This document shows, one piece after another, positions 4,363-60,917 of a stretch of 64,000 nucleotides of DNA. Location of the stretch: the NCBI GenBank assembly GCA_964410585.1, contig CAYPFW010000002.1:78207-142206 (forward strand), read 5' to 3'. Position 1 is the stretch's first letter, and each line of letters begins with the position of its first letter. Position numbers and translations under genes: made by a program. The notes under the pieces are model-generated. The model was not told where the DNA came from. It worked only from the letters and a program-made list of their open reading frames with translations, and made no database searches. This stretch comes from an uncultured archaeon (GTDB taxonomy: Archaea > Aenigmatarchaeota > Aenigmatarchaeia > QMZP01 > JACQNV01).

Positions 4363-5118
4363 CTAATTTTTGTTTTCGTATTTCCTGATTTTAGCTCTTG
4401 CTGATCTGACATGTTTCTTGGTTTTTTGGACAGAAGCTGCGAAAGAATCAGCTTTCCTCTCTTCTTCTGTTCTCAAATGATGGAATTTTACAAGAGTTGA
4501 CATTGGGGAAAGGAACCTAAAAAATGTCAAGGATAGTTTTAGGGCAGATGTCTTCTCTTTTATGTGTGCAAGTTCGTGGAGAATAACAGCCTCTAATTCC
4601 TTCCTATTTAATATATCGAAAAGACCAACTGAAAGGAAGATGGCTGATTTGAAATGTCTGAAGGAAAAGGCAAGCGGATTGGCTTTGTCCAATGCGAAAA
4701 CTTTGGGCGGCCTTATATTTAGGTTTTTAGATGATTTTTTGATGAAACTCAATACCCATCCAGATTTTATCTGCCTCTCATTGTTTGTTTTTACATAGTA
4801 TAGTGGGATCACTATAAACCCAACCAAAGTTGATACCAAAAGCGTTGCAGGGAGCGACAGCAGTAGAAGGTTTACAAAATTGTTTGGTCCAGTATAGCAA
4901 CTAGAAACACAGAGCATGCCGCATGTTGTTTGTGTTGTGAAGAGCATGAGTGGATACAAAAGGAAAACAAGATGGGAATACAAAATAACTATTCTAGATT
5001 TGTTGGAAAAGCTAAGCCTTTTCAGCAAAAAAATAAGCGAAACAGCAAATGATATGGATAGAATTGAAAGTACAATTTTCGCCGGGTCTACAACTAGGCC
5101 AAAAAAACACCCTACCAT
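4363..5118 (-). CDS. BlaR1/M56-like membrane zinc metalloprotease (signal-transducer protease domain, no sensor domain)
   Basis: Several TM helices, then the HExxH motif (HELAHIKE) in the M56/M48 context. It lies immediately downstream of a BlaI-family repressor gene. Confidence 0.6.
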   Translation of the reverse strand: MVGCFFGLVVDPAKIVLSILSISFAVSLIFLLKRLSFSNKSRIVILYSHLVFLLYPLMLFTTQTTCGMLCVSSCYTGPNNFVNLLLLSLPATLLVSTLVGFIVIPLYYVKTNNERQIKSGWVLSFIKKSSKNLNIRPPKVFALDKANPLAFSFRHFKSAIFLSVGLFDILNRKELEAVILHELAHIKEKTSALKLSLTFFRFLSPMSTLVKFHHLRTEEERKADSFAASVQKTKKHVRSARAKIRKYENKN

Positions 5119-35840: not shown

Positions 35841-36658
35841 ACGCATACTTAGAAATTTTGAGGCCAACAGTTTGTTTGATGACTGTGTTAGCTCTGGTAG
35901 TTGGTGGAATAGTCTCACAATCGCTTGTTTTTCCTCAATTGATTTTTGCAATCCTCGCAGGCTTCCTGATAACAGGCGGCGGTAACATAATCAACGACTA
36001 TTTTGATGTTGAAACAGATCGGATAAACTCACCAAACAGGCCTATACCTTCTGGGAGATTTCCGAAAAAATTTGCCTTGCCATATTTTGCAATTGTAAAT
36101 ATTTTGGGTCTTGTGTTTGCTTATTTAATAAACACAAATTTCTTGCTGATAGCTGTTGTGAATTTTGTAGTTTCAACAATCTATTCATGGAAACTCAAAA
36201 CAACACCTTTAGTTGGGAATATAGCAGTGAGCTATTTGGGTGCTGTCTCTTTTTTCGCAGCTGGTTTAATTTCAATGAGCTTTTCCCAAACTTTGGCTCA
36301 TCCTGTTTTCATCCTTGCTGTCATTGGTTTTTTTGGCACTTTGGCTCGGGAAATTTTGAAAGACATCCGCGATGTTAGAGGCGACAAAGCAATTGGCGCA
36401 AAAACTTTACCAATCATAACCTCAGAAAAAATAGCGAGTATAGTTGCAAATGTTTCTTTGGTTGTTGGAATCCTGCTCCTGTTCATACCTTTTATTTTTG
36501 GAATGTTCAAAATCGTTTATTTGGCTTCTCTTATTCCAGCTGTTTTAGTTTGCTTGTATACATTTTTGAAGCCTCCAGAAAAAGCAGAGAAATTTGTCAA
36601 GCTCGCGATCTTCCTTGTTTTCTTGGCGTTTATTTTGGGAAGTTTGGTTCAATCCTAA
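35837..36658 (+). CDS. UbiA-family prenyltransferase, probable digeranylgeranylglyceryl phosphate (DGGGP) synthase
   Basis: Asp-rich motif NDYFDVETDRINSPNRP; 8-9 TM helices. Confidence 0.75.
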   Translation: MNAYLEILRPTVCLMTVLALVVGGIVSQSLVFPQLIFAILAGFLITGGGNIINDYFDVETDRINSPNRPIPSGRFPKKFALPYFAIVNILGLVFAYLINTNFLLIAVVNFVVSTIYSWKLKTTPLVGNIAVSYLGAVSFFAAGLISMSFSQTLAHPVFILAVIGFFGTLAREILKDIRDVRGDKAIGAKTLPIITSEKIASIVANVSLVVGILLLFIPFIFGMFKIVYLASLIPAVLVCLYTFLKPPEKAEKFVKLAIFLVFLAFILGSLVQS

Positions 36659-36688
36659 GAATAAAAAGCTTATTTTTCAACAACTAGA

Positions 36689-58381: not shown

Positions 58382-58456
58382 TTATATAAATGGGGTTACC
58401 CGGATTTGAACCGGGGTCGGACGCTCCCAAGGCGCCAATCCTAAGCCAAGCTAGAC
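58382..58456 (-). tRNA. tRNA-Pro (anticodon UGG)
   Basis: Cloverleaf: acceptor GGGGTTA/TAACCCC, anticodon stem GGCGC/GCGTC with loop CTTGGGA, T-loop TTCAAAT, discriminator A; 75 nt, no encoded CCA. Confidence 0.85.
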
Positions 58457-58664
58457 GATAACCCCATATATCTAAAGGATTTATTCTTATTGTTTTAAAT
58501 AGTAATATATGAATATGGATCAGATGATTTCTACCTTAGAAACCGCTCTTATAGAATGTGGATACTGTGGAGCAAAAAATTTTAAAAGTACATGCGCAGA
58601 AATGTCTTACAAAACTTGTTCTAGGTGTTTGGGATCTTTGAAAATTTAAGCTTTTTTATTAAAA

Positions 58665-59762
58665 ATGTGTATGTACCTTGAATATGTAAGAACTTACCTT
58701 TCAGCAGATGAAAGGTTGACAGAAAAACAAAGAGACAGGCTAGCTCAAAGAATCATTAGATGGGCAGAAGATAATGATGTAAGAGACATAAGTAGATTGC
58801 ATGACAAGCTTGTTGATTGGATCGATCAGCCTTCGATTCAAGAGGAGAAATTTGAAAATGTTGAACATCCATTGGATAATGATGGCGATGTCAACCTTTT
58901 AGAAGACCCAAAATCACAAACACCTGTTGATTTGTTTGTTATAGGAGAACGAGAGATACTAACTGGAGACCAACTGAGGGGAATGATACTTGAGGAAAGT
59001 CCAGAATTGTCTGGTATTGCCTCTGTCATATTGCCTGAGAGCAGAGTTGTTGGCGACAATGTAGATTTAGATGGAATTGAAAACAGACTTAGAGGTATTG
59101 TTCCAAGAATCAAATGTGGTAAACTTCTTATCCCACAAAAACAAGTTCTGTGTATACGTTTTGATGAAAGTGGAAATTTGCAGATAGCCTACAAAAGAGG
59201 CTATCAGGATGACAGAGTCAATGAGGCTCTGAGGCTTTATTCTGAATTATTGACAGTCCAGGAAATAGGCCCTAGAATAGGTGTGAGCCCATCAACAGTT
59301 TGCACTTGGCTGTACAAGGATATGGGCCTGATGCCGGCACGCGACCTAAAAGTTGCAAGACAAATACAAACAGCAGTGAAACTTTTTGATGAAGGCAAGG
59401 AAGTACAGGAAATTATGGATATAATGAAATCGACACAGACAACTGTCTGGAGATGGTTGAATAGAGCTGGTGTTGAGTTCAACTCAAGGGGACCAGAACC
59501 TTGGGTATATGAGACTAAAGTCAGACTCAGTTTGTCGGATTTAGATGAAATATATTCCCAAATAAATCCAACTTTTAGACAAAGAAACAACTACAGGGAA
59601 ATTTTCAAATACATAAAAAATTTTGAGAAAGAAAACAAAAGAGGTCCAAGCAGAGATGAAATTTCAGATGCTCTTGGTGTTGATCCTTGGAAGACGCTTC
59701 AAGTTTTTGTTGAATATGGGATCTTAGAAAAAAGAAGGCTCCCAAGACGATTTTATGTCTAA
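58665..59762 (+). CDS. Hypothetical protein with multiple helix-turn-helix-like segments
   Basis: Three HTH-like stretches (GVSPSTVCTWLYKD, TTVWRWLNRAGVEF, ISDALGVDPWKTLQVFVEYGIL). It is flanked by tRNA-Pro and tRNA-Thr. Confidence 0.35.
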   Translation: MCMYLEYVRTYLSADERLTEKQRDRLAQRIIRWAEDNDVRDISRLHDKLVDWIDQPSIQEEKFENVEHPLDNDGDVNLLEDPKSQTPVDLFVIGEREILTGDQLRGMILEESPELSGIASVILPESRVVGDNVDLDGIENRLRGIVPRIKCGKLLIPQKQVLCIRFDESGNLQIAYKRGYQDDRVNEALRLYSELLTVQEIGPRIGVSPSTVCTWLYKDMGLMPARDLKVARQIQTAVKLFDEGKEVQEIMDIMKSTQTTVWRWLNRAGVEFNSRGPEPWVYETKVRLSLSDLDEIYSQINPTFRQRNNYREIFKYIKNFEKENKRGPSRDEISDALGVDPWKTLQVFVEYGILEKRRLPRRFYV

Positions 59763-59763
59763 A

Positions 59764-59850
59764 AGCCCCAAGGGAGAATTGAACTCCCAACCTACAGTTT
59801 ACGAAAATCGACATACAAATTCTGTCGCTCTACCATTGAGCTACTGAGGC
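59764..59850 (-). tRNA. tRNA-Thr (anticodon CGU) interrupted by a 15-nt intron at the non-canonical position 30/31
   Basis: Exon 1 = 59822-59850, intron = 59807-59821 (AATTTGTATGTCGAT), exon 2 = 59764-59806. The spliced product has anticodon stem ACAGT/ACTGT, loop TTCGTAA, T-loop TTCAATT, discriminator U. The splice sites sit in 3-nt bulges (AG^A and AT^T) flanking a perfect 4-bp helix CGAC/GTCG (relaxed BHB). Confidence 0.7.
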
Positions 59851-59898: not shown

Positions 59899-60411
59899 TT
59901 GTTTATGTCAGCTGAGTGTCTTTTTTGCAAAATAGTGAAAGGGGAAGTACCATCTTTCAAGGTTTATGAGGATTCCAAAACATTGGCTTTTTTTGATATA
60001 AATCCAAGAAACCCAGGACATACTTTGGTCATACCAAAGTCGCATCATGAAGTGCTTTTGACTGTGGGGGAAGAAGAAGGTTCTGCGCTTTTTTCTGCAG
60101 TGAAAAAGGTTTCGATTGCCTTGAAAAACAGCTTGAAGGCAGATGGTTTGTCTATTCTACAAAACAATGGTGAGGCAGCTGGCCAAGTTGTAGGTCATGT
60201 TCACTTTCATGTCATCCCTCGCTTCAATTCAGAAAGGCCAGTTGCATTGGAGGCTCTTTTGCCTGTCAAGAAACCAGCATCACAGGAAGCAATGCAGCAG
60301 CTAGTTAGCACAGTAAAAGCAGGCTTTGGTGGACCTGTTGAAAAGCCAAAAGAAGAAAAACCAGCTGAAAAAAAACCAGAAAAAAAGAAAGATATGTTTG
60401 ATTTTAAATGA
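59899..60411 (+). CDS. HIT-family (histidine triad) nucleotide hydrolase with a Lys/Glu-rich C-terminal tail
   Basis: HVHFHVIPR triad motif; 170 aa. Confidence 0.8.
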   Translation: MFMSAECLFCKIVKGEVPSFKVYEDSKTLAFFDINPRNPGHTLVIPKSHHEVLLTVGEEEGSALFSAVKKVSIALKNSLKADGLSILQNNGEAAGQVVGHVHFHVIPRFNSERPVALEALLPVKKPASQEAMQQLVSTVKAGFGGPVEKPKEEKPAEKKPEKKKDMFDFK

Positions 60412-60413
60412 GA

Positions 60414-60544
60414 TGCGCTAGCCGAGATTCGAACTCGGGTCACAGCCTTGGCAAGGTTATACACTTCTTGAATTTTTCTTAAAGTTCTGTATTCTACCAA
60501 GGTACAAACCTTTTTACAGAAAAGGCTTACTATACTACTAGCGC
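60414..60544 (-). tRNA. tRNA-like locus with intact acceptor/T-arm ends but about 55 extra internal nucleotides (multi-intron tRNA, isotype unresolved, or a pseudo-tRNA)
   Basis: 5' end GCGCTAG-TA-GTAT; 3' end CCGAG-TTCGAAT-CTCGG-CTAGCGC-A with perfect 7-bp acceptor complementarity. A candidate D-loop intron (minus-strand nt 16-45 of the locus) gives D-arm GTAT-AGTGGTAGA-ATAC and a BHB-like helix GTAT/GTAC followed by a 9-bp intron hairpin. The anticodon region could not be resolved with a single further intron. Confidence 0.4.
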
Positions 60545-60611
60545 TTTAATTCAAAGTATTATTATTCAGACTATTTAAAAACCTACACTAGAAAACTCAA
60601 TAATCTACTGA

Positions 60612-60917
60612 TTAAGAAAGCAACATCCACTCCAAATACTCTTTTGTCCTGCGGCATTTGTCTTCCTGTGCCCTGCATTCATCTCTTATTTGAATAAGCC
60701 TTCCCAGTCTTTGATTTTCTTCATTGAATAAAATAGAAAATTCTCTCTGACCTTCTAATATCCTATTTTGGTATTCCTGTAAATGCCTAAAAGATTCCTG
60801 CGCCATATCATCTACCATTGCTGCTTTTGAGGCCCAAGAAGCTCCTTGTTTTCCGTAAAGTTTTATTCCATCCTCTACAGAAGTTTGTCTACTTTGATAA
60901 ACATCAAGAACTGTCAT
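60612..60917 (-). CDS. Hypothetical small protein in the iron-permease operon
   Basis: 101 aa, C-terminal CRAQEDKC. Confidence 0.3.
   Translation of the reverse strand: MTVLDVYQSRQTSVEDGIKLYGKQGASWASKAAMVDDMAQESFRHLQEYQNRILEGQREFSILFNEENQRLGRLIQIRDECRAQEDKCRRTKEYLEWMLLS

Follow-up and report, generated by a model that had tools for sequence, protein, structure and literature searches.

The 64-kb stretch of archaeal DNA analysed here (contig CAYPFW010000002.1; the window) carries on its minus strand a 131-nt tRNA-like locus that lies beside a convergent HIT-family gene. The first-pass annotation of this DNA had reported the contact with the HIT stop codon, a perfect acceptor stem and a canonical T arm, and all three features were recovered. 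The HIT stop codon runs to 60411, which leaves 2 nt between it and the 3' end of the tRNA. The locus starts with GCGCTAG-TA-GTAT, and GCGCTAG (locus 1-7) is fully complementary to CTAGCGC (124-130). The 3' end reads CCGAG-TTCGAAT-CTCGG-CTAGCGC-A, which holds the T arm CCGAG-TTCGAAT-CTCGG and, as its last base, the discriminator A; CCA is not encoded. Locus nucleotide n corresponds to window position 60545 - n, and relatives and other hits are labelled L004, L009 and so on. As set out below, the locus is very probably a functional tRNA-Gly(GCC) gene of a DPANN archaeon (Aenigmarchaeota-like), split by a pair of 30-nt introns of the protein-spliced type, a reading based on its sequence.

Detection of the locus and identity of the spliced product

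Standard tRNA searches of the window passed over the locus. ARAGORN in default mode called tRNAs only at 58390-58466 and 59764-59850 and none at 60414-60544, and Rfam at the gathering threshold returned the same two tRNAs and nothing at the locus. When positions 60350-60620 (271 bases) were searched with RF00005 at E <= 10 there was no tRNA match, only a T-arm fragment reported under tmRNA, and the unspliced genomic sequence lay below the RF00005 family threshold. This silence would be expected of a gene in which 60 nt of intron break up both the D arm and the anticodon stem. We also scanned both strands of the window by geometry, looking for a T arm combined with U8 and with an acceptor strand that lies far off and pairs along its whole length. 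The scan returned the locus, the two known tRNAs and one AT-rich site at 36490-36667 (+) inside an ORF (open reading frame) of the UbiA family; this last match has no other tRNA features and was taken as chance. Folding of the 131-nt RNA gave z = -4.2 against dinucleotide shuffles, and the locus exceeds chance expectation.

The extra internal sequence, previously put at about 55 nt, amounts to 60 nt in two segments of 30, and the isotype, which had been left unresolved, follows once both are removed. The T stem fixes C48 and the preceding bases permit a 4-nt variable loop, UGAC, and therefore the anticodon-stem 3' strand is GGCUG (98-102). Upstream of it stands the anticodon loop UUGCCAA (locus 91-97) with U33, the anticodon GCC, A37 and A38. 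The 5' strand must then be (C/U)(A/G)GCC ending at locus 90, and since C56 A57 G58 together with C89 C90 are the only bases that can supply it, locus 59-88 has to be removed. This second intron was derived from completion of the anticodon stem alone (CAG plus CC with GGCUG), and its agreement with the splicing rule was checked only later. Removal of 59-88 together with 16-45, the D-loop intron proposed earlier, leaves a 71-nt product that ARAGORN calls tRNA-Gly(gcc): GCGCUAG UA GUAU AGUGGUA GAAU A CAGCC UUGCCAA GGCUG UGAC CCGAG UUCGAAU CUCGG CUAGCGC A. With slashes for the exon junctions, the spliced RNA is predicted from sequence to read ...GUAUAG/UGGUAGAAUACAG/CCUUGCCAAGG....

The spliced product has a 7-bp acceptor stem, A14, G18 G19, A21, a 5-bp anticodon stem, U33, a purine at 37 and a T loop of the form UUCRAnY, and its sole departure from the cloverleaf is one D-stem pair, A12xA23. 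It shares the anticodon GCC and the 4-nt variable loop with archaeal tRNA-Gly(GCC), scores within the range of a profile of that family, and is identical at 65/71 positions to a Woesearchaeota tRNA-Gly(GCC) (L114). The spliced sequence also shows G1-C72, C2-G71, G3-C70, A73 and the anticodon GCC (C35 C36). We take C2-G71, G3-C70, A73 and C35 C36 to be the glycine identity set for glycyl-tRNA synthetase (GlyRS) and G1-C72 presumably to be an archaeal glycine element as well; in the host lineage these bases would act as the identity determinants.

Two pairings described earlier take on a different role in this product. The D arm that had been called canonical, GTAT-AGTGGTAGA-ATAC, is probably mis-registered: the anticodon stem begins with the C of ATAC (nt 27), and ATAC supplies the exon side of the intron 2 central helix. 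The real D stem is probably GTAT/GAAT, as in other 71-nt archaeal tRNA-Gly(GCC) genes; the D-arm layout matches 71-nt members such as L106 (GTTT-AGCGGTA-GAAT-T). GUAU at locus 10-13 serves both as the D-stem 5' strand and as the exon strand of the intron 1 central helix. The CCTTG/CAAGG pairing, which had seemed to lie in an incompatible place, corresponds to the self-complementary Gly(GCC) anticodon arm and to the intron 2 outer helix. The features of the gene are collected in Table 1.

Table 1. Predicted features of the tRNA-Gly(GCC) gene, in window coordinates
Feature	Position	Strand	Description
pre-tRNA-Gly(GCC) gene, whole	60414..60544	-	131 nt; sole two-intron architecture found; ARAGORN call on spliced form
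exon 1	60530..60544	-	tRNA positions 1-15: GCGCUAG, U8 A9, D-stem 5' strand GUAU, A14 G15
intron 1 (predicted)	60500..60529	-	30 nt; D-loop 15/16; locus 16-45; relaxed HBh' motif
exon 2	60487..60499	-	tRNA positions 16-29: U16, G18 G19 U20 A21, GAAU, A26, C27 A28 G29
intron 2 (predicted)	60457..60486	-	30 nt; anticodon-stem 5' strand, 29/30; locus 59-88; near-canonical hBHBh'
exon 3	60414..60456	-	tRNA positions 30-73: CC, UUGCCAA, GGCUG, UGAC, T arm, CUAGCGC, A73
anticodon GCC	60450..60452	-	locus 93-95
TATA-like box TTTAAATA	60572..60579	-	-35..-28 from mature 5' end; putative archaeal promoter

Splicing motifs and their significance against chance

The archaeal splice motif is a 4-bp helix between two 3-nt bulges (bulge-helix-bulge, BHB) (PMC4090602). 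At the canonical site the helix takes in anticodon bases 34-35, hence the cut 2 nt 3' of each strand (PMC4090602). Applied to the relative L009, our implementation of this rule recovered the canonical 37/38 intron of its tRNA-Gly(UCC), with the helix CUUC/GAAG and the cut after A37, and was thereby validated. Intron 2 of the tRNA-Gly(GCC) locus has a central helix AUAC (53-56)/GUAU (83-86) of four Watson-Crick pairs, and each cut falls 2 nt 3' of a helix strand. The helix lies between the bulges A57 G58 A59 and A87 A88 C89 (AGA and AAC), the inner helix has 5 bp (60-64/78-82), and an outer helix of 9 bp (43-51/91-99) pairs exon 2 with exon 3. An A52.C90 mismatch adjoins the 3' bulge. The exact fit of these junctions to the BHB rule is independent confirmation of the intron. 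By the published motif definitions intron 2 is an hBHBh' motif with one A.C mismatch and intron 1 an HBh' motif (PMC4090602, PMC5829648). In unconstrained folding of the precursor, the centroid structure showed, for intron 2, both the central and the inner helix, the 5' bulge of 3 nt and 8/9 outer pairs. The minimum free energy (MFE) structure contained the full outer and inner helices, with the central helix missing.

For intron 1, the D-loop intron at locus 16-45 proposed in the first-pass annotation is one of the two solutions of our search, with the helix GTAT (10-13)/GTAC (40-43) and cuts after G15 and U45. The 9-bp internal hairpin described with it is also present (17-25/31-39). The motif consists of the 5' bulge AGU, the central helix and this inner hairpin. 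The hairpin has no repeat within the window. A hairpin TAAGCCTTTTTGAAAAAGGCTTA at L004 971-1000 (+), right after the HIT stop of this 85%-identical relative, closely resembles the intron 1 inner hairpin TAAGCCTTTTCTGTAAAAAGGTTTG, and the 37/38 intron of L009 holds a similar AGCCTTTT...AAAAGGCT hairpin. These likenesses may reflect chance in AT-rich sequence or a shared origin.

Helices of the BHB type were unremarkable by themselves, with 12 in the real sequence against a mean of 11.3 in shuffles. We searched every non-overlapping set of one to three BHB-like candidates and passed the products through a strict cloverleaf filter. Only two candidate sets restored a strict cloverleaf, and both gave Gly(GCC) and used intron 2. 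When the internal 97 nt were shuffled, 0/3000 sequences gave any solution. It is the conjunction of the motifs with the cloverleaf that is exceptional, not the single helices.

The choice of introns was also examined with a family profile in which BHB motifs were ignored. The profile was built from 100 distinct intron-less archaeal tRNA-Gly(GCC) genes from GTDB genomes. It was then used to score every different sequence, approximately 305,000 in all, that arose from 1.5 million schemes with one or two deletions; similarity to the 3' exon was built into the search pattern for the family, and similarity to the 5' 29 nt was not. The two BHB solutions ranked 2 (28-nt intron 1, 65.4 bits) and 10 (30-nt intron 1, 62.7 bits) among these products, within the family's own range of 43.9-72.8 bits (median 66). 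The top 15 products were all 1-2-nt variants of the two BHB solutions. The unspliced locus reached 41.9 bits and matched the profile through exon 3 only. ARAGORN, run on 304,810 distinct one- or two-deletion products, made 109,582 tRNA calls of many isotypes and was dropped as a discriminator because it accepts far too many sequences when the acceptor and T arm are given.

The second BHB solution describes the same gene with a slightly shorter first intron. Here intron 1 would be 28 nt (locus 17-44, window 60501-60528), excised at 16/17 through the central helix UAUA/UGUA, resulting in a 73-nt tRNA with the D-loop AGUUUGGUA and the junction AGU/UUGG, compared with AG/UGG for the 30-nt intron. 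The two registers differ by 1 nt at each end. We consider the 28-nt register a tentative alternative of some weight. It passes the same BHB and cloverleaf filters, has the higher profile score and rank, and its D-loop is found in real archaeal tRNA-Gly(GCC) genes such as L028. However, the profile is biased toward the length of this register because 73-nt members dominate it, and the D-loop of the 71-nt form, AGUGGUA, is common too. The bases by themselves cannot pick the register, since U39 could pair either in the helix 10-14/39-43 or in the hairpin 17-39. In either register the product is tRNA-Gly(GCC), and the 30-nt introns of Table 1 are used in what follows.

Genomic context, relatives and competing explanations

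The putative promoter box of the tRNA-Gly(GCC) gene is in the same register as TATA-like boxes at both neighbouring tRNA genes, which have TTTATAAA at -33..-26 and TTTAAA at -34..-29. T-rich tracts lie downstream of the tRNA-Gly 3' end. The window encodes archaeal L1, L10/P0, L11, S15, S19e, L31e, aIF2-beta, eIF6, RNase P Rpp21, TruD and Trm5/TYW2, and the named homologs of its HIT and FTR1 proteins are mostly from Candidatus Aenigmarchaeota. No splicing ligase gene was found in the window.

A multi-HTH (helix-turn-helix) protein gene had been placed between two tRNA genes, and this held on inspection: a 365-aa protein with HTH_23 and a resolvase-type HTH_7 domain is encoded at 58665-59762 (+), precisely in the gap that separates the tRNA-Pro and tRNA-Thr genes. 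The relatives L008 and L009 show the order MJ0538 - tRNA - HIT without the HTH gene, which suggests that the HTH/resolvase-like gene is an insertion adjoining tRNA genes. The tRNA-Thr(CGU) itself (59764-59850 (-), 87 nt) is mis-typed as Lys(UUU) by ARAGORN in default mode. It carries a 15-nt intron at 30/31 (59807-59821) with the helix CGAC/GUCG, and after splicing it has a perfect ACAGU/ACUGU stem and the loop UUCGUAA. Orthologs of tRNA-Thr(CGU) carry the intron elsewhere, at the canonical position in L004 and in the D-loop in L009, and L132 has a tRNA-Pro with a D-loop intron. In L112, L123 and L127, metagenome-assembled genomes of DPANN or other archaea in GTDB, tRNA-Gly(GCC) is 87-90 nt long with D-arm insertions of 15-18 nt, which are further non-canonical introns in DPANN-type genomes. 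Non-canonical tRNA introns are common in this neighbourhood and in related contigs.

The closest parallel to intron 2 was found in L009, whose HIT protein is 60% identical. Directly after HIT this contig has a tRNA-Gly(UCC) of 195 nt at 4798-4992 (+) with three introns, of 36 nt at 29/30, 56 nt at 37/38 and 32 nt in the T-loop, and splicing gives a clean 71-nt tRNA. The helix of its 29/30 intron, ACAC/GUGU, is a compensated version of AUAC/GUAU. In L005 (4571-4732 (+); L006 is identical) a tRNA-Gly(UCC) carries a 91-nt insertion right after the anticodon loop with two hairpin domains, and no BHB geometry was found at the ends of this insertion, whether it was read as a single intron or as a pair, nested or side by side. 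It is conceivable, though rather unlikely, that the 29/30 intron is old and lineage-wide in Aenigmarchaeota glycine tRNAs, shared between GCC and UCC by descent or by intron transposition, and that the heavy intron load at this rearrangement-prone spot (tRNA-Pro, HTH/resolvase-like gene, tRNA-Thr, HIT, tRNA-Gly) could reflect selection for disrupted tRNA genes as a guard against tRNA-integrating elements.

Relatives of the tRNA-Gly(GCC) gene were sought by pattern and by synteny. A GTDB scan for the exact anticodon loop, T arm and acceptor gave 0 matches. A relaxed pattern gave at least 120 loci, nearly all of them intron-less among the matches listed. Of two metagenome scans for tRNA-Gly(GCC) genes interrupted at 29/30, the first gave 0 matches and the second 6 unrelated ones. 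In three GC-rich JGI metagenome contigs (L144, L145 and L146) a bacterial-type tRNA-Gly(GCC) is present only from its anticodon arm onward to the 3' end, and no 5' half could be recognised upstream; these look like attachment-site remnants. By the HIT route, relatives had a tRNA-Gly(UCC) on the other strand (L005, L009) or no tRNA after HIT (L004), and no true ortholog was found. By the FTR1 route, no relative examined had a tRNA beside the ORF101 homolog, and in the relatives that share the FTR1/ORF101 block (L136-L141) a different gene follows the block.

Several observations weigh against a functional two-intron gene. No ortholog with the same introns was found in two GTDB scans (in the second, among the matches listed), two metagenome scans and twelve synteny look-ups. 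The sole other copies are an identical locus in two further metagenome assemblies, which represent the same population; the organism occurs in the sequencing runs ERR4904390 and ERR4904392. Two Aenigmarchaeota genomes among the matches listed (L020 and L126) have intron-less Gly(GCC) genes. The gene stands at the junction of two conserved blocks (the 60414-60917 region), that is, at a synteny breakpoint, and no tRNA_int_endo domain was found in 60 window ORFs. Intron 1 has a relaxed motif only, with no outer helix, and two possible registers. Folding raises further points. The mature D stem is weak, consisting of G10.U25, U11-A24, the A12xA23 mismatch and U13.G22, and a competing GUAU/AUAC pairing is more stable (-22.6 vs -19.8 kcal/mol, nearest-neighbour energy). 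The precursor conformation that has both motifs together lies 9 kcal/mol above the MFE. Thermodynamic folding of the mature tRNA did not discriminate: RNAfold preferred a long hairpin over the cloverleaf because CCUUGCCAAGG, which is common to all family members, is self-complementary.

The breakpoint in particular is compatible with a decaying tRNA-Gly pseudogene, or a recombination or integration-site remnant, that is no longer processed. Relatives keep the FTR1 or the HIT block, never with a tRNA-Gly gene between them, an HTH gene with a resolvase-like domain appears to have been inserted between two neighbouring tRNAs, and the D stem has the A12xA23 mismatch. We nevertheless find such decay improbable. 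The acceptor, T and anticodon stems are perfect and the loops canonical, the promoter box is in register, and two separate intact splicing motifs are very unlikely in drifting sequence, as the shuffles indicate. An attachment-site remnant is further opposed by the 25-nt 3' end, which occurs once in the 64-kb window with 3 mismatches allowed, and by the presence of both acceptor strands. As far as is known, no archaeon can do without a decoder of GGU/GGC, whether GCC or an equivalent, and neither ARAGORN nor the geometry scan found another GCC decoder in the window.

A different tRNA, interrupted by a single large intron or bearing a long variable arm, as in the Gln(CUG) with a 65-nt intron, the Leu(AAG) and the Tyr that ARAGORN draws in intron mode on unspliced or half-spliced sequences, is highly improbable. 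The Gln model shows a D stem of 3 bp, no G18 G19, a pyrimidine at 37 and junctions (locus 29/30 and 94/95) outside the BHB-like candidates. In the Leu and Tyr models the anticodon stems contain mismatches, the variable arms are implausible and the 'introns' of 10-14 nt lack motifs (10 nt in the Leu(AAG) drawing), and none of the three passes the strict cloverleaf and BHB filter or comes near the Gly products on the family profile. No arrangement with a class II (Leu/Ser) variable arm of 3-7 bp before the T stem and a proper anticodon stem passed either. Among the three options that had been left for the locus, the splicing and cloverleaf evidence thus favours a multi-intron tRNA; a long variable arm finds no support, and the intact stems and motifs speak against a decayed tRNA or integration remnant.

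Proposed processing and comparison with known systems

Read as a two-intron tRNA-Gly(GCC) gene, the locus would be processed as follows. Transcription would start from the TATA-box promoter about 30 nt upstream, and the 131-nt precursor is predicted from sequence and folding to place each exon-intron junction in a BHB-type motif. The near-canonical motif of intron 2 at 29/30 would be held by the long outer helix that joins exon 2 and exon 3, and intron 1 would be excised from the D-loop at 15/16 or 16/17 through the relaxed HBh' motif. By analogy with known archaeal tRNA splicing, the splicing endonuclease would make its cuts 2 nt 3' of both strands of the central helix, after which the three exons would be joined by an RtcB-type ligase. 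The product would be a 71-nt tRNA, or 73 nt in the alternative register, with CCA presumably added after transcription because it is not encoded.

The value of the locus lies mainly in annotation, with an essential tRNA missed and its neighbour mis-typed, and in recording how many non-canonical tRNA introns this lineage carries. As neither ARAGORN nor Rfam detects the gene, the genome would be annotated as lacking tRNA-Gly(GCC). Gaps of this kind lead to false inferences about reduced DPANN genomes: that tRNAs are missing, that codons have been reassigned or that the cell depends on a host. Incomplete DPANN tRNA sets have been attributed to undetected disrupted genes (PMC5829648). The Aenigmarchaeota-like lineage would join the archaea with multi-intron tRNAs, and its splicing endonuclease is predicted to accept relaxed motifs at sites other than the anticodon loop. 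Multi-intron tRNAs and endonucleases with a specificity loop are known from DPANN archaea (PMC5829648), and 29/30 and the D arm are documented non-canonical intron positions (PMC4090602).

The locus most resembles the multi-intron BHB tRNA genes of Thermoproteales, Nanoarchaeota, ARMAN/Micrarchaeota and other DPANN archaea (Sugahara et al. 2008; reviewed in PMC4090602 and PMC4033280). It is like them in its collinear exons and short introns (30 nt here), in the 4-bp central helix, in the position of the cuts 2 nt 3' of its strands, in the use of a strict and a relaxed motif at 29/30 and in the D arm, and in escaping standard tRNA finders. It differs in its Aenigmarchaeota-like host and in combining D-loop and 29/30 introns in a tRNA-Gly(GCC). 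In the literature searched we found no published description of multi-intron tRNA genes for an Aenigmarchaeota-like lineage. The pre-tRNA-Glu(UUC) of Methanopyrus kandleri also has two introns, one with a relaxed HBh' motif in the D-loop, and, like the locus here, needs an endonuclease able to act in spite of a missing outer helix (PMC5829648); there the second intron is at the canonical 37/38, whereas here it is at 29/30 in the anticodon stem. The tRNA-Gly(UCC) of L009 is alike in its HIT adjacency, its 29/30 intron, the motif geometry and the covarying central helix. It is the other isoacceptor, however, and lies on the opposite strand relative to HIT, its further introns are at 37/38 and in the T-loop and not in the D-loop, and its intron sequences are not alignable with those of the tRNA-Gly(GCC) locus. 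The same endonuclease motif logic assembles tRNAs from pieces in the split and permuted genes of Nanoarchaeum equitans, Caldivirga and Thermofilum. In the tRNA-Gly(GCC) gene the pieces are contiguous, in order and on one strand, and therefore no trans-splicing or permutation is needed. The locus is an ordinary instance of a gene type already known in tiny archaea and reveals no new mechanism.

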